From the IMG/VR virus record IMGVR_UViG_3300045960_000093, positions 4,211 through 68,210 of that record: 64,000 nucleotides of DNA. One strand, 5' to 3'. The position numbers and the translations under genes are program-made. This document shows, piece by piece, positions 3,444 to 19,795 of the stretch. The stretch is from a virus. Numbering within the stretch: position 1 is the first letter of the stretch; each line of letters starts with the position of its first letter. Below the pieces are notes generated by a model. The model had not been told where the DNA came from and searched no databases. It saw only the letters and a list, made by a program, of their open reading frames with translations.

Positions 3444-3928
3444 AGACCACCCTTCACTGTTCGGTCTGCGGCTTCAACCAGGAGCTGAAGCCAAGCGAGT
3501 CCAAGACTCGCCGGCGATATGGGCTGGAGCCCAAGTGTCCCAAGTGCCACAGCGTCATGCAGTACAACGTGTCGGAGCTCGGCACTACGGACAACCAGCG
3601 CCGCAGCCAGGCACAGGAGGAGCGTGTCGCAGCCAGGGAGGGGGCCAAGAGGCAAGCGGCCTCAGGCTCCCGCCCCGGCTACGAAGGTGACGTCCGAAAG
3701 GTCGGCGCCTACCGAGGTGAGTGCAAGTTCACCAGAGCCAAGTCCTTCGCGCTCAAGCTCGAGGTGCTTCGCCAGCTGGAGATGCAGGCCGACTACGGGG
3801 AGCTCCCTGTTCTCGACCTCGAGTTCCAAGGCAACGAGGGTCACTGGCGCTACGTCGTACTGCCGGAGTGGGCCTACGAGATCCTCATGAAGGAGTCAGG
3901 GAGACGATGCAAGACACCAACGTCCTGA
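3440..3928 (+). CDS. Zn-ribbon + PD-(D/E)XK nuclease, Holliday junction resolvase-like
   Basis: CSVC/CPKC, then QEERVA...ASGS...GDV...ECK nuclease core; ATGA-coupled to recA. Confidence 0.72.
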   Translation: MKTTLHCSVCGFNQELKPSESKTRRRYGLEPKCPKCHSVMQYNVSELGTTDNQRRSQAQEERVAAREGAKRQAASGSRPGYEGDVRKVGAYRGECKFTRAKSFALKLEVLRQLEMQADYGELPVLDLEFQGNEGHWRYVVLPEWAYEILMKESGRRCKTPTS

Positions 3929-6020: not shown

Positions 6021-6330
6021 GGTCAACCTCGAGGCCCTCAACCACTCTGAGTTGGTGCTGCTGGCCAACTGGTGCATGTTGGGCGTGACGAGGGCCGACA
6101 CGCGAGAAGCCATCATCCAGGCGTTGGAGACCATGACGCCGCTCAACACGGCGCCGGCGTTCTTCGACGAGGCGGACAGGATGAGCCGGTGGATTCAGTA
6201 CCACTGGGACGTGTTCCGCATGCAGGTCGGCAAGCGCGTGTGCCCGAACTGCATGGAGTGCCGGGATTTGCAGAACCTGGACTGCTACCAGCACAACCGG
6301 CTCAACCTCGAGGGCGCCCGTCGTGGATGA
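5995..6330 (+). CDS. Hypothetical protein with C-terminal Cys cluster
   Basis: Strong RBS AAAGGAGG; CPNCMEC..C. Confidence 0.7.
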   Translation: MATKLPNVEVNLEALNHSELVLLANWCMLGVTRADTREAIIQALETMTPLNTAPAFFDEADRMSRWIQYHWDVFRMQVGKRVCPNCMECRDLQNLDCYQHNRLNLEGARRG

Positions 6331-7609
6331 GCTGATCCCCATCTGCTTGTATTGCAGCAAGCTGGTGCACTGCCCGCTCCTCTCCGACTCCGGAGGGAAG
6401 TGCGTGGAAGAAAGGCTCATCACGGCAGAGCGCTACCGTGAGTGCCCGGACTGGACTCCGATCCAGTACGCGAAGAAAAAGGTCAGAGACAAGATGTACA
6501 ACATCTCTGGGCTGGGGTATCTGCGATGCGCCCATTCGGAGTTCCCCGACCAGGAAACCAGCCTCACGCTAGACGAAGGAGCGCTGTATGCGATGATCAT
6601 GGAACGAGAAAGGCCTGACTTCTACTCGATGCTCTACGAGGGCATCACGACAACGGAGCGCGACACGCAGCTTCGTTTCCAGACCGACGAGAACGGCCAG
6701 ATCAAGGTCGTCGTAGGTCCGGACGGTACCGAGATTCCGCTGGTGCGGCCGAACTACGAGCTCATGGGGTACGCGATGGCCCCAGAGGGTCCGATCTGCG
6801 CCGGCCGCAACGTCATGTTCTCCAGCGTCAACGAAATCATCGAGCACATTCTGAAGACCGAGGTGGCGGCCGGTCTTGTCATCAAAGCCAAGAAACCAAA
6901 GGCGGAAACGCCCCAACCCGAGGAAAGGGAGACCGTAGATATGCCTCCAGCCAAAGGAACCCCAGTTCAGACCCGTGTTGTCACCAACCGTCCCGGCCCG
7001 AGCGTCGCCCCGACGCCCGGCAACGTCCGTCCGCCGGCGCAAGCCGCGGCTCCGGGCCCGCGTCGGGCCAACCCGAAGCCCCCGGCCGGCGCTCCCGCGC
7101 AAGCCGCGGCTCCGGCGCCGGCGTCGTTGCCCAAGCCCAAGCCGGTGCAGACCAGCGGCCCCGCGGTCGGTGGTCGGGTGTCGAATCCCGTTCGGCGTCC
7201 GGGGCCGCAGCCCCAGCCGCAGGTGCAGGAGCAGCAGGCTCCCGAAGAGGTCGCGGCGCAGTCGGCGATCGACCTCGAGGGCCTGGCCGTCATGACGGCG
7301 AACGTCATGGAGGCCAAGACGGCGGCGCAGATCGAGGCGCTCCGCGGCGAGCTCCTGGGCGCCATCGACCACGCCAAGAGCCAGCTGGCTGACATGCTGG
7401 CCATCGCGTTCGACATGGCGGTGCAGACCAACGGCACCTACCAGTACGCGCAGATGGACGACAAGAACAACTACGTGGTCGACGACCAGGGCAACCCCGT
7501 CATGGTGTCGCTGCCGCAGATCAGCCGCAAGAAGGGCCGTCTGCTCAGCTTCGCCGACCAGTCGGCCTACACGGCGCCCGACGAGGAAGGCCAAGCCCAG
7601 GGGGAATAG
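6323..7609 (+). CDS. Hypothetical protein: Cys-rich N-terminus, Pro/Ala-rich linker, helical C-terminus
   Basis: 428-aa ORF overlapping the upstream gene, with GC3-rich codons. Confidence 0.8.
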   Translation: MDELIPICLYCSKLVHCPLLSDSGGKCVEERLITAERYRECPDWTPIQYAKKKVRDKMYNISGLGYLRCAHSEFPDQETSLTLDEGALYAMIMERERPDFYSMLYEGITTTERDTQLRFQTDENGQIKVVVGPDGTEIPLVRPNYELMGYAMAPEGPICAGRNVMFSSVNEIIEHILKTEVAAGLVIKAKKPKAETPQPEERETVDMPPAKGTPVQTRVVTNRPGPSVAPTPGNVRPPAQAAAPGPRRANPKPPAGAPAQAAAPAPASLPKPKPVQTSGPAVGGRVSNPVRRPGPQPQPQVQEQQAPEEVAAQSAIDLEGLAVMTANVMEAKTAAQIEALRGELLGAIDHAKSQLADMLAIAFDMAVQTNGTYQYAQMDDKNNYVVDDQGNPVMVSLPQISRKKGRLLSFADQSAYTAPDEEGQAQGE

Positions 7610-7791
7610 CCCCTGCCCCGAACCACGGGGCCCCTGACACCGACGGCATCGTCGTGAGGTCAGAAGAGCTGTCCTCCATGCCGATGGAGCAGCTCCAAGC
7701 CCTCGCCGACGCCGTAGGCGTTGGGTACCTGGGCCTCGACGAAGAGGCCCTGAGGGCGAAGCTGGTTCTCGAAGGAGAGCCTGTTGTTTGA
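7600..7791 (+). CDS. -1 frame extension encoding a Rho-N/HeH-like helical module (candidate frameshift product)
   Basis: Open -1 frame GIAPAPNHGAPDTDGIVVRSEELSSMPMEQLQALADAVGVGYLGLDEEALRAKLVLEGEPVV* from the GGGGGAA heptamer to just before a terminator. Confidence 0.6.
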   Translation, partial: GGIAPAPNHGAPDTDGIVVRSEELSSMPMEQLQALADAVGVGYLGLDEEALRAKLVLEGEPVV

Positions 7792-7794
7792 CAC

Positions 7795-7834
7795 AAGCCC
7801 CCGCCTGGGTTCGCCTGGGCGGGGGCTTTCGTTT
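7795..7834 (+). terminator. Intrinsic terminator
   Basis: AAGCCCCCGCCTGGG-TTCG-CCTGGGCGGGGGCTT hairpin followed by TCGTTT. Confidence 0.8.
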
Positions 7835-7843
7835 GGAGCGCCC

Positions 7844-8194
7844 ATGAGCACAAGACCACCGCTGCGGGGACCGAAAGGGCCCGACAACATGCCGGAGGAG
7901 AGCACCGTCACTGGGGTTCAAGAACGGCGACAACCCGACAACGCACAGCAGCGCGGCGTTCTGGACGCCGTGCTCCAGGAGCGAGAGTACCAGCGGCAGC
8001 GCTGGCACTCCGACCAGCACCACCAGCAGTCCGACTGGCTGGCCATCATGACGGTCTGGTTGGGCAAGATCGCCTCCGAGGCGCCGCCGTACCGCGACCC
8101 CAGCAACCCCGAGGCCGCCAAGGCTTTCAAGAAACGCATCACGCAGCTCACCGCCATCGGGCTCGCCGCCCTCGAGGCCATGGAGGAGTCATGA
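7844..8194 (+). CDS. MazG-like all-alpha NTP pyrophosphohydrolase-fold protein
   Basis: VLQEREYQRQRW...DWLAIM...LGK...QLTAIGLAALE pattern; RBS GGAG; the catalytic acidic residues look degenerate. Confidence 0.5.
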   Translation: MSTRPPLRGPKGPDNMPEESTVTGVQERRQPDNAQQRGVLDAVLQEREYQRQRWHSDQHHQQSDWLAIMTVWLGKIASEAPPYRDPSNPEAAKAFKKRITQLTAIGLAALEAMEES

Positions 8195-8529
8195 AGCGTG
8201 GCACCTACATGCTCAAGCCCGAGAGGATAAAGCTCGGCAAGCTGGTGAAGACGTACCTGTACCTGCGTGGTGGCACGAAGGACGAGACGGCCTTCTACCA
8301 GTACAAGATCAAGACCAAAGCCGGAGAGCTTCTGGTGTCGACCAACGATGACACCGGTGCGGTCTTCTGTCGGTTCTCCGATCCTACGGCCGCAAAGAAC
8401 ACCCTGAATGGGTATGGAGCTCTCCAGAGGCTCAACCCCTACTCGGGAAAGTGGAACTTCCACTGGAGCCGCATGGACGCCGAAGAAGCCTTCCAGCAGT
8501 TCAAGTACGAGCTCGACAGAGTGCTGTGA
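8191..8529 (+). CDS. Hypothetical protein
   Basis: ATGA overlap; RBS GGAGG; last gene of the + strand block. Confidence 0.7.
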   Translation: MKRGTYMLKPERIKLGKLVKTYLYLRGGTKDETAFYQYKIKTKAGELLVSTNDDTGAVFCRFSDPTAAKNTLNGYGALQRLNPYSGKWNFHWSRMDAEEAFQQFKYELDRVL

Positions 8530-15163: not shown

Positions 15164-18100
15164 TCAGGCAGTCGCCAGTTGACGCTTCAAGTCCGCGACC
15201 TCAGCCTTGAGGCTCTGTAGGGCCTTGGTCAGTACTGAGATGATGGACGGCACGTTGAGCGTGGTCTTTTCGGAAGTCGCTACGAGCTCCGGCATCTCTT
15301 CGGCGATGAAGCCGGCCTTCGGGCCGTCCTCCAACGCGGTCTTGAACCGGAACGTCACCGGGCTCAGCTGATCGAGGATACGACCCGCATCATCGGCCGA
15401 GAGCTTCTCCACGTCCTGCTTGAAGCGGATAGAGGAGCCAGGATTCCACTGACCGGTCGCGCTCAGGTTTGCCGTGGTATCGCCGTGCTGGATCGCGGGT
15501 TGTGTGGCAACCCCGCTGACTCGAGGGCTGTACACGATGATGCCGGCGGCTAGTCCGTTCCATCCGGCCGGCAAAGAGATGTAGTTGACGCTGATGCCGT
15601 AGGCGCGGTTGCCGGCGTTCACCCAGCTGGTGGAGAGCCCCGTGATGCTCATGCCGTAAACTAGGCCAGCGGACGTGATGGTATCGACGCGAACGCCGAT
15701 CGCACCCTGCGTTGCCGCCGCCGTGATGTTGTAGAGCGACATGCCGTGCGTGAAGTAGGAGCCGGCGCCGCCCGAGATGTTTCTCGCCGCGAACCCTCCC
15801 ATCCCGTACGTCCCGCCCGCCGTGCTGGTGATCCCGTCTAGGAAGACCCCCCACGCGGTACCTGTGTAGACATTTCCGGTGCCTTCCCCCATGAACGCTG
15901 CCGCAAAGCTTCCCAGACACGACGCCGAGTGGAAACTATACGCGGTCATCGAGTTACCGGCGCTCTGCGAGTCCGAAAATCCGACAACAGCTCGGTACCC
16001 CTCGGCCGCGCTGTAGGCGAAGTTCGCCCCACAGGCAACCGTTGAGCGGAACCCGTAGGCGAAGCCGCCGACCGCGCTGCCGCCACCGTACGGCTTTGCA
16101 AGGTAGACGTCACATCCGTAGGCGCTGGTGAACGTCGAGGTGCCGCCCGCATAAGGGCTGACGTTGATCTTCAAACCACTCAGGTTGGAGATCGTGCTGT
16201 TGTAGCCGCTCCCAAACTGGGAGACATCGACCTGCTGCCCACAGATGGTGTCGAACAGTACCCCGTTCACGTCCGAAAGGTCGCGCTCCACCTCGATGTA
16301 CTGCCCGATGACACTTCCGGTCTGGCCGCCAGCCTGAGGGAACATGTTGCTGTAGCTGGTGTGGAGGTGCGTGAGATACCGCGTCTCCGACGGAGTCCCG
16401 ATCTGGAAATGCTTGTCGACGTAGAAGAGTGGGTACAGCGCGTTTTGCGAAGTCGAGTTGATGTAGAGGCCGCGCATGTTCCCGCTGGCGATGCCCGGCA
16501 TGAAGCAGAAGTTTCCGTACTCTCCGTTGTACGGGCCGCTGATGGGTCCATAGGTGCTGAAGATCAGATTGCCGACTCCCCGCTGCGCGATCTGTGTGGT
16601 ACCGGCGCTGCCACCGTTCCTAACGATCCTCAGCCCATACGTCGTGTAGGTGCTGTCACCCACCAAGTCGATGTAGGACGCCGCGTCGGTCGTCTGCCTA
16701 CCACCAACACGAAGGTAGCTGTCTCCGCCAGCCGTCTCGTTGGCCACCCGAAGCGCAGCGTTGACGTCGAGTCGGTAGGTGGAGCTGATCGTCGTGTCCA
16801 ACGACGAGAAGCCGATGCCGGCGTTTCCGCTGCTCTGCCCGACCAGAAGGGGCTGGTTGGCTGCCCCATTCGTCAGATAGAAATTTCCGCCAGACCGGAT
16901 GCCGAACGTCGACGTCGTGCTGGGGCTCGTGGCCGTCATCGACAGGCTGTCGCCGTAGGCCTTCGTAGATACGAAGGCAGCGTTTCCGGTCGCGGTTCGC
17001 TGTACGGTGATCTGTCCGCCGTTCGTCGTATCGACGCTGACGATGACGTCGTTGTTGGCCCCGTTGTCTCGGAAGTTGAACGTCGAGGTATTGGCGTCGC
17101 CTAGCACACGGAGGTCGGAGATCAGGCTCCACGTCGACCCGTTCCACCGCTTGAACTCCCACTTGGCGATGTGCTGTGTGGCCGGAGTCGTTCCGGTCTC
17201 CATGTCGAGCACCATCAATGGAGACCCGACGCCCTGGTACGAGGTACCTTGGTTGACGGACCCGCTGGGCCGATAGAACGCCGCGATCTTCCCAAGTCCC
17301 GAACTCGGACCGCTCACGGAGAACGTCGCGTTGTCGAGCGTTCCACCATTCACTGCCAACGGGGTTCCGATCCACGAGCTCGTCTGCCCACGGATCTTCG
17401 ACGTAGCACCCTGGAAGTTGGTGGCCAGTGCCGCTGGAGTAATGGACGCCGGGTTCCAGCTATAGCCGAAGTCCTCGTAGGCGCACGCCCCTGGTGTTCC
17501 GGTGTTGAGGTCGGTGACGAGCTCTTCCCAGACCGTCGGGTTGGAAAGACGACGACGGAACAGCACGTAGCGCGCAGCCCCGGCGACACGGTCCCACGTC
17601 AGCCGCACGTACTTGTCGTTCGAGGTTGGGACGACTGCCGGCTCCTCGGTCAGATTCGGCGGCCCGTAGGTACCGTCCGGTGCAACACCGGCCACGCGGT
17701 AGTAGTAGGTGTCGGCTGCCACGATGCTGGCGCCCGCGACAACGGTGGTGAACAAGAAGGCGTCGTAGGACTGCGCCATCTCCAGCGAGAAGGCCTGTCC
17801 GTTCCCTGCCCACAAGGATGTTCTCGGGTAGATGTTCGTGTGCAGCGAGCCGAAGTACCCGTCGGCACTCATATCGGACAACGTCACCGAGTCGGCGGCG
17901 TTTCGTAGGATCACCTTCAGGTTGTGGTTGGACTCGTCGGTCGCGGTGTTCCGAACGATGACGGTGTTGCCCGTGTTGCCGGGCTCCATGTTGATGACGT
18001 CAGGACGGATGGTGGCGTGGCGTCCGGAGTCGTTGTGGTGCTCGAGCCAGAACAGGTTGAAGATGTTCTCGAGGTTGCTCTCGCGGCTCCCGTACAGGTA

Positions 18101-19795
18101 GTCGGTGATGGTCGTCGCCGAAGGTCCGATGATGGCCAAGATGGCCTTCTGGATGGTCTCGTCGGCCTCCTGGCCGTACCGGAGGCTACCGCCGGCGAGC
18201 GCCGTGGCGTCGTCGGTCGCGGTCCGGATGGTCGACATGTCGTAGTAGACGACCCGAATCGTTTGCGGCGTGCTTGGGAACGTGCTCGGGATCGCACCGT
18301 TGGGGAACGCCAAGAATCGGATGAACGGGTCACGCCAGAAGCGGCCATCCGTCGTGACCGTAACGGTGCCCAGAGAACCGCTGGTGCTGGGGTTCAGGTA
18401 GACTGGCCCGAAGTCGACGGACGCGAGCTCCAGGGTCCACTTGTCGACTACCTTGGTGACACGGTACGAGCCGGTGTTCGAGTACGGGATGTTGGGGGCC
18501 GCGCCGGCCCACACCACCAGGTCGCCCTCGCGAACGATCGGCGCCGCATCGGTCCCGAAGTCGGCGCCGGCGCAGTAGATGCGGTTGTTCTTGTCGATCC
18601 GGGTGACCGCCGTGCTGGCCTGCTTGGTGCCGTAGGAGTTCTCGATCCGAACGCCGCCGAGCTCCGGCGCCTTGTCGTAGACGCCGTCGACCAGGCAACG
18701 GACCGTCTGCACCTGATCGAGAGAGCCAGTGCGCCCCGACTCCGTGATCTGGTACTTGACCCCGGTGCCTGGTACCACCGGGTTGATGATGACCTCGGTG
18801 GGGCTGTGGTACTCGATGATCTTGAGCAGCACCCCGTTCAACGCCGACGGGCCACCCGACAGGTTCGTGGGCTTGACGTAGTAGTCGCCGGTCTCGTGAA
18901 TCGGAAGGAACGGAGCGCTGGCGGATGTGACGACCTGGTACAGCTTGTCGGAGTCCCACGCGAAGTTCAGGTCCGTGTAGGTCGTACCTTGGACGTCGTT
19001 CTCCTTGACGAGCTCTCGGCCATCGCTGTCGAGGATCGCGAACCACTTCTCCAACACCGAGGTGCTGGGCGCCGTCGCGTCACCCGTGTAGACCCAACCG
19101 GAGAGCTGTATGCCTTCCTGGTTCGGAGAGCGAACCGAGTAGGTCGTCTCCAGCTCGGCCCTCTTGGCGATGCGCTTCTTGTCGAGCAGCAGCCCCGAAC
19201 GGTCGCTGTTGACCGCCAGCTGGAACGTCATGCGGTTGAACACGCTGGACTCGAACTGCTCACCCTCCATCCACGAGAGCTGACCCGGGTTGGCGACTTG
19301 GCGGTCGGGATCGATGTTCTGCGCCTGCCGGAGGTCACCGCCTCTGGAGACCGTTTCGGCAAACAGTCCGAGCTCCGACAGAACCGACGAGCCCGCGGTC
19401 ACCAAGGTCTCGATCCGCAGGTAGCTGTTGGCCCCAAGGCGAGGGCTCATCAGACGCAGGAAGCCGTTGTCGTTGAACGCCACCACCTCGTTCATGCACG
19501 ACGAGGAGTTGATGCGCGCCACGACCTGGTCGAGCGTGTGAGGGTCTGAGGACACGAACGAGACAGTCTTCTGGATGGGAGCGTACGGGAACGCCGGGTC
19601 GTCGATCCACAGGTAGAACGACTTCCCCGACACGTCGAACCCCAACGGGGTCTCACGCTGAACGCCCAAGATGGTCGCTTGCGCGTTGAGCGTTCTTGGC
19701 AACGTGAGCGGGGTGCCGCCGGAGCTGTAGGACGGAAGGATGGGCCAGGAGCCCATCAAAGTGCCGACGTCAGTGTGTTGGAACGGTGCCGGCAT
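15164..19795 (-). CDS. Tail fibre protein 2 with C-terminal peptidase S74 intramolecular chaperone
   Basis: SSIRFKQDVEKL...PVTFRFK...GFIAEE plus terminal coiled coil; FN3-like segment YYYRVAGV...LTWDRVAGA. Confidence 0.87.
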   Translation of the reverse strand: MPAPFQHTDVGTLMGSWPILPSYSSGGTPLTLPRTLNAQATILGVQRETPLGFDVSGKSFYLWIDDPAFPYAPIQKTVSFVSSDPHTLDQVVARINSSSCMNEVVAFNDNGFLRLMSPRLGANSYLRIETLVTAGSSVLSELGLFAETVSRGGDLRQAQNIDPDRQVANPGQLSWMEGEQFESSVFNRMTFQLAVNSDRSGLLLDKKRIAKRAELETTYSVRSPNQEGIQLSGWVYTGDATAPSTSVLEKWFAILDSDGRELVKENDVQGTTYTDLNFAWDSDKLYQVVTSASAPFLPIHETGDYYVKPTNLSGGPSALNGVLLKIIEYHSPTEVIINPVVPGTGVKYQITESGRTGSLDQVQTVRCLVDGVYDKAPELGGVRIENSYGTKQASTAVTRIDKNNRIYCAGADFGTDAAPIVREGDLVVWAGAAPNIPYSNTGSYRVTKVVDKWTLELASVDFGPVYLNPSTSGSLGTVTVTTDGRFWRDPFIRFLAFPNGAIPSTFPSTPQTIRVVYYDMSTIRTATDDATALAGGSLRYGQEADETIQKAILAIIGPSATTITDYLYGSRESNLENIFNLFWLEHHNDSGRHATIRPDVINMEPGNTGNTVIVRNTATDESNHNLKVILRNAADSVTLSDMSADGYFGSLHTNIYPRTSLWAGNGQAFSLEMAQSYDAFLFTTVVAGASIVAADTYYYRVAGVAPDGTYGPPNLTEEPAVVPTSNDKYVRLTWDRVAGAARYVLFRRRLSNPTVWEELVTDLNTGTPGACAYEDFGYSWNPASITPAALATNFQGATSKIRGQTSSWIGTPLAVNGGTLDNATFSVSGPSSGLGKIAAFYRPSGSVNQGTSYQGVGSPLMVLDMETGTTPATQHIAKWEFKRWNGSTWSLISDLRVLGDANTSTFNFRDNGANNDVIVSVDTTNGGQITVQRTATGNAAFVSTKAYGDSLSMTATSPSTTSTFGIRSGGNFYLTNGAANQPLLVGQSSGNAGIGFSSLDTTISSTYRLDVNAALRVANETAGGDSYLRVGGRQTTDAASYIDLVGDSTYTTYGLRIVRNGGSAGTTQIAQRGVGNLIFSTYGPISGPYNGEYGNFCFMPGIASGNMRGLYINSTSQNALYPLFYVDKHFQIGTPSETRYLTHLHTSYSNMFPQAGGQTGSVIGQYIEVERDLSDVNGVLFDTICGQQVDVSQFGSGYNSTISNLSGLKINVSPYAGGTSTFTSAYGCDVYLAKPYGGGSAVGGFAYGFRSTVACGANFAYSAAEGYRAVVGFSDSQSAGNSMTAYSFHSASCLGSFAAAFMGEGTGNVYTGTAWGVFLDGITSTAGGTYGMGGFAARNISGGAGSYFTHGMSLYNITAAATQGAIGVRVDTITSAGLVYGMSITGLSTSWVNAGNRAYGISVNYISLPAGWNGLAAGIIVYSPRVSGVATQPAIQHGDTTANLSATGQWNPGSSIRFKQDVEKLSADDAGRILDQLSPVTFRFKTALEDGPKAGFIAEEMPELVATSEKTTLNVPSIISVLTKALQSLKAEVADLKRQLATA

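Follow-up and report, generated by a model that had tools for sequence, protein, structure and literature searches.

Our subject is the end of a gene in the replication region of an uncultured, probably large phage, where a second reading frame appears to be attached to the first. We analyzed a 64,000-nucleotide (nt) stretch of DNA with a G+C content of ~63% (the window), which corresponds to bases 4211–68210 of the 68,210-base IMG/VR virus record IMGVR_UViG_3300045960_000093 (CheckV completeness, 35%). The plus strand carries a replication/recombination block in the order family A DNA polymerase (PolA), RecA-like ATPase, PD-(D/E)XK nuclease, and RusA, which is followed on the 3′ side of RusA by a gene encoding a 111-amino-acid (111-aa) protein, an open reading frame (ORF) encoding a 428-aa protein, a region open in the –1 frame relative to that ORF, and two further small genes. 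The virion genes lie on the minus strand and converge on this block. An initial annotation, made from the letters of the window, had proposed that some ribosomes shift into the –1 frame at the end of the 428-aa ORF and thereby append a small nucleic-acid-binding module to its product. After following up this proposal, we consider it probable that a programmed –1 ribosomal frameshift at the heptamer G_GGG_GAA (underscores separate 0-frame codons) yields a longer protein with a helix–extended loop–helix (HeH) tail.

The anatomy of the gene end agreed with what had been described (Table 1): the heptamer directly precedes the 0-frame stop codon, a perfect hairpin follows 8 nt downstream, and the –1 frame runs on to a stop codon of its own just before an intrinsic terminator. 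The heptamer had also been correctly identified as a known slip site of tail assembly chaperone genes. As described for actinobacteriophages, GGGGGAA is the 'fivetwo' –1 motif in all of about a thousand such sites, in annotated tail assembly chaperone genes, and the slip is attributed to the Glu tRNA pairing anew with GGA through a G:U pair (PMC10885494). For corynephage phi16, a Shine–Dalgarno (SD) sequence, GGGGGAA, and a pseudoknot have been proposed (PMC5506516).

Table 1. Features at the end of the 428-aa gene, in window coordinates
Feature	Position	Strand	Description
0-frame gene	6323..7609	+	GTG start, 428 aa, end CAG GGG GAA TAG
Internal in-frame ATG (Met207)	6941..6943	+	GGGAGAC upstream; possible second start, shorter isoform
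SD-like GAGGAAGG	7583..7590	+	Ends 9 nt before heptamer; possible upstream stimulator
Slippery heptamer G_GGG_GAA	7600..7606	+	Proposed –1 site, in phase with 0-frame gene
–1 frame extension	7600..7791	+	63 codons plus TGA 7789-7791; linker 7609-7677, HeH domain 7678-7788
0-frame stop TAG	7607..7609	+	Directly 3′ of heptamer
Hairpin GCCCCG-AACCA-CGGGGC	7615..7631	+	6-bp G+C stem, 5-nt loop; 8 nt after heptamer; candidate stimulator
Independent 37-aa ORF (alternative reading)	7678..7791	+	Gene-caller annotation from ATG 7678
Intrinsic terminator	7795..7834	+	15-bp stem; follows –1 ORF stop rather than 0-frame stop

To place this gene end in context, we compared DNA from five loci: the window, a metagenome contig (L002), and three IMG/VR contigs of 202,100 (L003), 132,593 (L004), and 46,114 (L007) bases. 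All five shared a neighborhood comprising RusA, a protein of ~105–112 aa, the gene of the 428-aa family, and a small ORF. The family proteins of the window and L003 were 58% identical, and the remaining measured pairs were 30–34% identical (L007 was left out of this comparison). Across this distance the gene ended alike, as CAG GGG GAA TAG, in the window, L003, and L002, and as GAG GGG GAA GAG TAG in L004, where the stop falls one codon after the heptamer. An in-phase G_GGG_GAA therefore stood 0–1 codon before the stop in four of the five loci, while the neighboring C-terminal residues varied among them. The combination of in-phase heptamer, nearby stop, and –1 ORF, for which the initial annotation had suggested looking in relatives, was thus found in four of five loci with proteins 30–58% identical. 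Codon use in the 15 long genes of the window gives a measure of how unusual this spelling is: GGG accounts for 23% of the codons for Gly and GAA for 16% of those for Glu, and because both are minority codons, Gly-Glu would be spelled GGG GAA only ~4% of the time. The heptamer is also rare and under-represented in the window, occurring three times on the two strands, compared with 9.5 ± 2.9 times in shuffled sequences. A second in-phase G_GGG_GAA lies on the minus strand at 15884–15890, in the ORF of a 1543-aa virion gene (15164–19795), at base 3906 (of 4632), well short of the stop.

A larger sample of the family was available at the protein level. A word-index search returned a single homologue (P0002, 32% identity), whose C-terminus is likewise Gln-Gly-Glu, and a full hidden Markov model search with three query sequences returned 109 representative clusters, and the E value was ≤ 1e-10 for 103. 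Seventy of the 109 representatives had a C-terminal Gly-Glu, Gly-Asn, or Gly-Lys (GE, GN, or GK) with zero to two residues after it, compared with 8.7 ± 2.8 when the last 30 residues were shuffled 2000 times (highest count, 18). These endings comprised GE (26 representatives, and 17 with one further residue), GN (8, and 10 and 4 with one and two further residues, respectively), and GK (4, and 1 with one further residue), and in 70 out of 70 the residue before the Gly could be encoded by an NNG codon. Relative to the rest of the tail, the per-position enrichment at the end was ~6-fold for GE and ~11-fold for both GN and GK. GD was not enriched there (4 at the end versus 37 elsewhere in the tail). 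Because GE, GN, and GK were enriched but GD was not, selection seems to act on a G run followed by an A run of nucleotides rather than on the peptide; Glu, Asn, and Lys are chemically unrelated yet have in common A-rich codons that can follow a run of G. Judged from the sequences, the pattern resembles what slip sites like G_GGG_GAA, G_GGA_AAY, and G_GGA_AAR would leave.

We then turned to the sequence downstream of the slip site. A homologous HeH ORF followed the family gene in the –1 frame at all five loci, its frame being open from where the gene ends, and in the four loci with GGGGGAA the linker that separates the slip site from the HeH domain measured 25–26 codons. Over the 22–25 codons from slip site to HeH, the G+C content by codon position was coding-like in the –1 frame at each of these four loci, with third-position G+C (0.72–0.83) highest or tied for highest and second-position G+C lowest, the same order as in the upstream gene. 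In addition, Ile17 of the extension was invariant in all five loci although its codon was not (ATC, ATC, ATA, ATT, and ATT). This residue lies upstream of every ATG, GTG, and TTG of the –1 frame in the window and in L003, and L003 has no possible start codon in that frame before codon 26. Taken together, these features make the linker look translated.

A change of frame at a run of five G residues could also be an artifact, with an assembly or sequencing indel having split a true gene that is one in-frame ORF of ~490 aa; the homopolymer sits exactly where the frame changes, and one more G would fuse the two frames. The in-frame fusion predicted by this explanation was looked for and not found: none of 111 family proteins carried the extension in frame (best E 0.29), and no longer proteins carrying the HeH of the extension were found, although the latter is weak evidence. 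Contigs from three public runs cover the site. A Logan contig from the probable source run (X1) was identical to the window over 7300–7900 at a depth of 32, and contigs from two other studies kept the five G residues. The first of these (X2, 151 nt, covering 7589–7739) differed from the window at one position, in the hairpin loop. The second (X3, 573 nt) was only ~89% identical, with 53 changes and six letters missing at 7587 and 7593, a deletion that is in frame and lies 5′ of the slip site; no indel was present 3′ of it. In this more divergent contig the 15 nt from 7598 to 7612 and both halves of the hairpin stem were unchanged, the differences in this region falling in the loop (7621 and 7625) and at the bases flanking the stem (7613, 7614, and 7632), and in the HeH part most changes were synonymous, at third positions of the –1 frame. 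Because the five G residues recur in independent contigs, the four other loci, which come from other samples, are split alike, and no in-frame fusion was found, we regard an assembly indel as effectively excluded.

The hairpin downstream of the heptamer folded with a predicted free energy of –11.9 kcal/mol (z –2.77), and none of 200 shuffled sequences folded as well. In three of the four loci with GGGGGAA a hairpin began 7–8 nt after the heptamer (z –2.5 to –2.9). That of L003 has the stem of the window with a different loop (7 bp, –13.4 kcal/mol), and that of L004 is an unrelated 10-bp stem that begins 7 nt after the heptamer (–20.1 kcal/mol, z –2.9). As a stimulator conserved across all loci the hairpin was rejected, being absent in L002 and also in L007, where no significant hairpin followed the gene end (z –0.86). 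The SD-like GAGGAAGG upstream of the heptamer fared no better as a conserved stimulator: comparable purine runs were present in L003 and L004 and none in L002, and the X3 variant lacks four letters at 7587, so this candidate was rejected as well.

The location of the hairpin and the endings of the family also bear on transcriptional slippage, in which the polymerase would insert or skip a base within the run of five G residues and the frame would change at the RNA level. Such slippage would use the same homopolymer and give an identical product. Transcriptional slippage is known, however, from longer homopolymers, mostly A or T, and the process requires neither a hairpin at 7–8 nt nor the two A residues that follow the G run. 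Moreover, the GN and GK endings are indicative of ribosomal sites of the classical X_XXY_YYZ form. We therefore consider transcriptional slippage very improbable.

The terminator was found where the initial annotation had placed it. Its stem (7795–7809 paired with 7814–7828; –32.5 kcal/mol, z –4.87) begins 3 nt after the –1 stop, and the 3′ end of the stem begins the U-rich UUUCGUUU tract (7827–7834). Terminators also followed the stop of the –1 ORF in L003, L002, and L004 (z –4.4 to –4.9), and none followed it in L007. An Rfam search gave a sub-threshold match to ftsZ-DE at 7763–7829 (27.6 bits versus a cut-off of 72.2), which covers the terminator together with the last part of the extension and was taken as a chance resemblance of a G+C-rich hairpin; a sub-threshold match to sX6 over the terminator region was likewise taken as chance.

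The initial annotation had described the extension as a Rho-N/HeH/SAP-like module, a description with which the predicted fold is compatible, although the Pfam family threshold was not reached. An AlphaFold2 model based on an alignment of five sequences predicted a disordered linker followed by helices at residues 21–26, 29–39, and 48–58, with two helices joined via an extended Gly-rich loop and a predicted local distance difference test score (pLDDT) of ~80 over the motif. When this model was compared with known structures using VIA-align, the best match was the N-terminal subdomain of Rho (1a62, residues 1–47; Z 5.8, root-mean-square deviation (rmsd) 1.9 Å, 45 residues aligned), followed by YqbF, several SAP domains, T4 endonuclease VII, the emerin LEM domain, and the FAN1 SAP domain (Z 4.0–4.9 for the SAP and LEM matches), with the qualification that Z values below 8 may mean merely a common arrangement of helices. 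Foldseek returned no match to the extension at E ≤ 0.001 against the PDB, and a sequence search of the PDB returned nothing significant (best E 0.33). Pfam Rho_N (PF07498) matched three of the five extension sequences below threshold (12.9 bits for the window, range 12.9–13.9, cut-off 24.9; best E 0.01). On the basis of the model, the extension looks like an HeH module with a fold-level likeness to Rho-N and SAP, but not like a certified member of Rho_N.

Three checks suggested in the initial annotation (the homologues, the search for in-frame fusions, and the predicted fold) came out in favor of a frameshift. Its most serious competitor supposes no recoding at all: the HeH peptide would come from a small gene of its own, which starts at ATG 7678 (37 aa) or at GTG 7654 (45 aa) and is translated by reinitiation or with a ribosome-binding site of its own, and the heptamer and hairpin would be incidental. 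On this point the initial annotation, which had held that the –1 region lacked a convincing SD-start of its own and was absent from the list of ORFs, stood only in part: the 45-aa ORF from GTG 7654 is listed, and gene callers annotated the start at ATG 7678 (P0003), with GAAGAG 9 nt upstream. The 37-aa ORFs that gene callers gave in three close relatives (P0003, P0004, and P0005) all have the same Met start. Furthermore, in all four loci with GGGGGAA a start codon at the HeH domain's N-terminal edge was preceded at 4–9 nt by an SD-like purine run (the GAAGAG of the window, GAGGAG in L003, GAGGG in L004, and AGAGG before a TTG in L002), and these runs resemble the TAGGA/GAGG motifs ahead of the long genes of this phage. 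Because of these SD-like runs before edge start codons, the HeH domain could be made alone, as a peptide of 34–37 aa.

These observations weigh against a frameshift, as do several others. The gene end of L007 (2808–2831) reads ATA AAA CAG TAG, in which the sole slippery candidate is A_AAA_C; its –1 frame opens just five codons 5′ of the stop. Because a GTG lies 2 nt after that stop, termination–reinitiation could replace the slip, and we conclude that L007 uses either a different slip site (A_AAA_C) or termination–reinitiation. The heptamer of L002 is followed by no stable hairpin (z 0.25). At the family level, 39 of the 109 representatives lack the G-[E/N/K] ending with zero to two further residues (fragments account for some of these, and in others the motif lies farther in), and the tails are Gly- and Glu-rich, which raises the chance both of GE endings and of SD-like sequence. 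The DNA comparison involved few loci (n = 5), which cover four deep lineages (30–34% protein identity), the window and L003 not being independent. Finally, the initial annotation had counted it in favor of recoding that the –1 frame stays open for ~60 codons. The frame does stay open for the 63 codons of the extension, but this openness means little alone, because the G+C content is 63% and the frame is also open for 69 codons 5′ of the heptamer.

The same consideration is what would speak for pure chance, with the heptamer, hairpin, and open frame all functionless and the HeH-like ORF unexpressed, since alternative frames are often open at such a G+C content. Against this, the extension is better conserved than the protein to which it would be attached (49–50% versus 33–34% identity when the window is compared with L002 and L004), the changes in the HeH part of X3 have the synonymous bias of a translated –1 frame, and a terminator follows the extension in four of the five loci. 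We give a chance origin almost no credence.

A separate HeH gene is harder to dismiss, and we consider it unlikely as a full explanation. It leaves unexplained the in-phase GGGGGAA built of rare codons in four of five loci, the placement at 7–8 nt of hairpins with two different stem sequences, and the family-wide G-[E/N/K] C-termini. Nor does it account for the constant –1 relation between the two ORFs (five of five loci), for the linker 5′ of the Met, which is indel-free, stop-free, and coding-like, or for an Ile17 that has three different codons and, in the window and L003, precedes any start. The Met at the edge of the HeH domain is kept in P0004, P0005, and L004, but is Gln in L002, and the SD-like runs are also plain Glu and Gly codons of an acidic segment. 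The two modes of expression need not compete: independent initiation at ATG 7678 may coexist with the frameshift.

Having considered these alternatives, we return to a programmed –1 frameshift and outline how it would operate. Most ribosomes would read CAG GGG GAA and stop at TAG 7607, producing the 428-aa protein, and a minority (as judged by analogy) would slip back by one base on G_GGG_GAA. In a tandem slip, the Gly-tRNA would re-pair with GGG and the Glu-tRNA with GGA via a central G:U pair; alternatively, the Gly-tRNA might slip alone, prior to arrival of the Glu-tRNA. The downstream hairpin, 8 nt on, probably aids the slip. Slipped ribosomes would then add ~60 codons, encoding a flexible linker of ~25 residues and an HeH domain of ~35 residues of the Rho-N/SAP/LEM type, and the mRNA would end at the terminator just past the –1 stop. 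The anatomy of the site, its conservation, and the fold prediction are established by the comparisons above. From them we infer the slip, its efficiency, and the role of the tail, and by analogy only a fraction of the molecules would carry the tail. To judge from other HeH domains, the tail would most plausibly tether the protein to a partner protein or to nucleic acid.

The protein to which the tail would be attached combines an N-terminal domain rich in Cys, a stretch rich in Lys, a disordered region rich in Pro and Ala, a long helix, a small beta unit, and an acidic tail. AlphaFold2 assigned pLDDT > 90 to residues 1–190 and 320–420 and < 50 to residues 209–313, which are predicted to be disordered. 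The 428-aa protein matched no family in Pfam, PHROGs, or NCBIfam, Foldseek found no match at E ≤ 0.001 against the PDB and BFVD, and nothing useful came from the ESM Atlas (best score 0.76). With VIA-align it gave coiled-coil matches only, apart from residues 112–186 (window 6656–6880), which resemble the N-terminal subdomain of Rho (1a62; Z 5.7, rmsd 1.4 Å, 48 residues aligned, 25% identity); the model of these residues also resembles the C-terminal part of T4 endonuclease VII. Because residues 112–186 already resemble the Rho N-terminal subdomain, the long form would carry two HeH-like modules.

Where the disordered half of the protein begins lies an internal Met codon that is itself conserved. 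Of 71 aligned family members, 67 had Met at the position of Met207, and in four of four loci GGAGAC lay 6–9 nt upstream of it, which suggests, at the level of sequence, a conserved internal start that would give rise to long and short isoforms. For the family as a whole (>100 clusters, from uncultivated large phages), these elements can be combined into a tentative picture that we regard as possible though doubtful. The locus would produce four isoforms, with long and short bodies arising from the Met207 start and the –1 frameshift supplying an HeH tail to some copies of each. In the course of evolution one slip site would have replaced another (GGGGGAA, G_GGA_AAC/T at GN endings, G_GGA_AAA/G at GK endings, and A_AAA_C in L007), with the –1 HeH kept throughout, and a fixed minority of tailed subunits would anchor a coiled-coil and Pro/Ala-rich assembly to DNA during replication or recombination.

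Relatives with accessible DNA were scarce. Cultured-phage records yielded no family member when INPHARED was searched by blastn with the region and by tblastn with P0002, P0017, P0055, and P0070, and genome contigs searched with P0002 and a family alignment gave no match. Viral contigs gave no match with the window protein, P0002, or one family alignment as the query, and with four other family alignments they returned the same three other contigs only (L003, L004, and L007); a metagenome scan yielded L002. On the 3′ side of the terminator, the two small genes (7844–8194 and 8191–8529) are kept with the locus; homologues of the one that encodes 116 aa occur in L003, L004, and L007, and this gene weakly matched phrog_2831 (E 1.7e-6). 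We found no published description of the 428-aa family or of a frameshift-appended HeH, in a search that did not extend to supplements (e.g., the PRFect 'false positives').

If the frameshift operates as proposed, it has several consequences. To our knowledge, conserved programmed frameshifts of tailed phages come almost exclusively from tail assembly chaperone genes and some capsid genes, and here the same heptamer is kept among very distant relatives in a gene of a replication/recombination block that belongs to no known family. For annotators, the rule would be to annotate each gene of this family as one with the small 'hypothetical' ORF that follows it. For those who study how frameshift sites evolve, the family offers a natural series of slip-site variants. 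As for function, the need for a set minority of subunits with a DNA- or partner-binding HeH tether probably hints at a multimeric assembly on DNA.

The proposed arrangement can be compared with several known systems. Like the tail chaperone pair G/GT (lambda gpG/gpGT; PMC5009743, as described there), it would combine a –1 slip near the gene's 3′ end and a 0-frame stop close by with a minority long form that has an extra C-terminal domain, and the heptamer is identical to that of actinobacteriophages and phi16. The differences are nonetheless substantial. The gene and the virion genes are on opposite strands, the gene closes the PolA/RecA-like/PD-(D/E)XK/RusA block, and its 428-aa product has a long disordered region and no Pfam or PHROG chaperone match; the added part is a linker and a 35-residue HeH domain rather than a domain that binds the major tail protein. 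We therefore rejected identification as a tail assembly chaperone, the gene not lying between a major tail protein and a tape measure gene and having no chaperone homology, and the proposal of the initial annotation that this would be recoding in a non-tail gene holds. In phages, nested isoforms are also produced from internal in-frame starts, and Met207 with its GGAGAC is similar, although initiation here is suggested only by conservation. The extension is like Rho_N, SAP, and LEM modules in predicted fold, and its nucleic-acid binding is putative. The dnaX gene of Escherichia coli, which produces tau and gamma, is associated with replication and undergoes a –1 frameshift; a hairpin lies downstream of the site and an SD-like element upstream. 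The locus described here is alike in its association with replication, in its downstream hairpin, and possibly in its upstream SD-like element, but the dnaX slip shortens the protein, because a stop is met at once in the –1 frame, whereas here the slip would lengthen it, and the SD-like run here is unconserved. Set beside these systems, the 428-aa gene would present a known device in a new gene family and no new mechanism.

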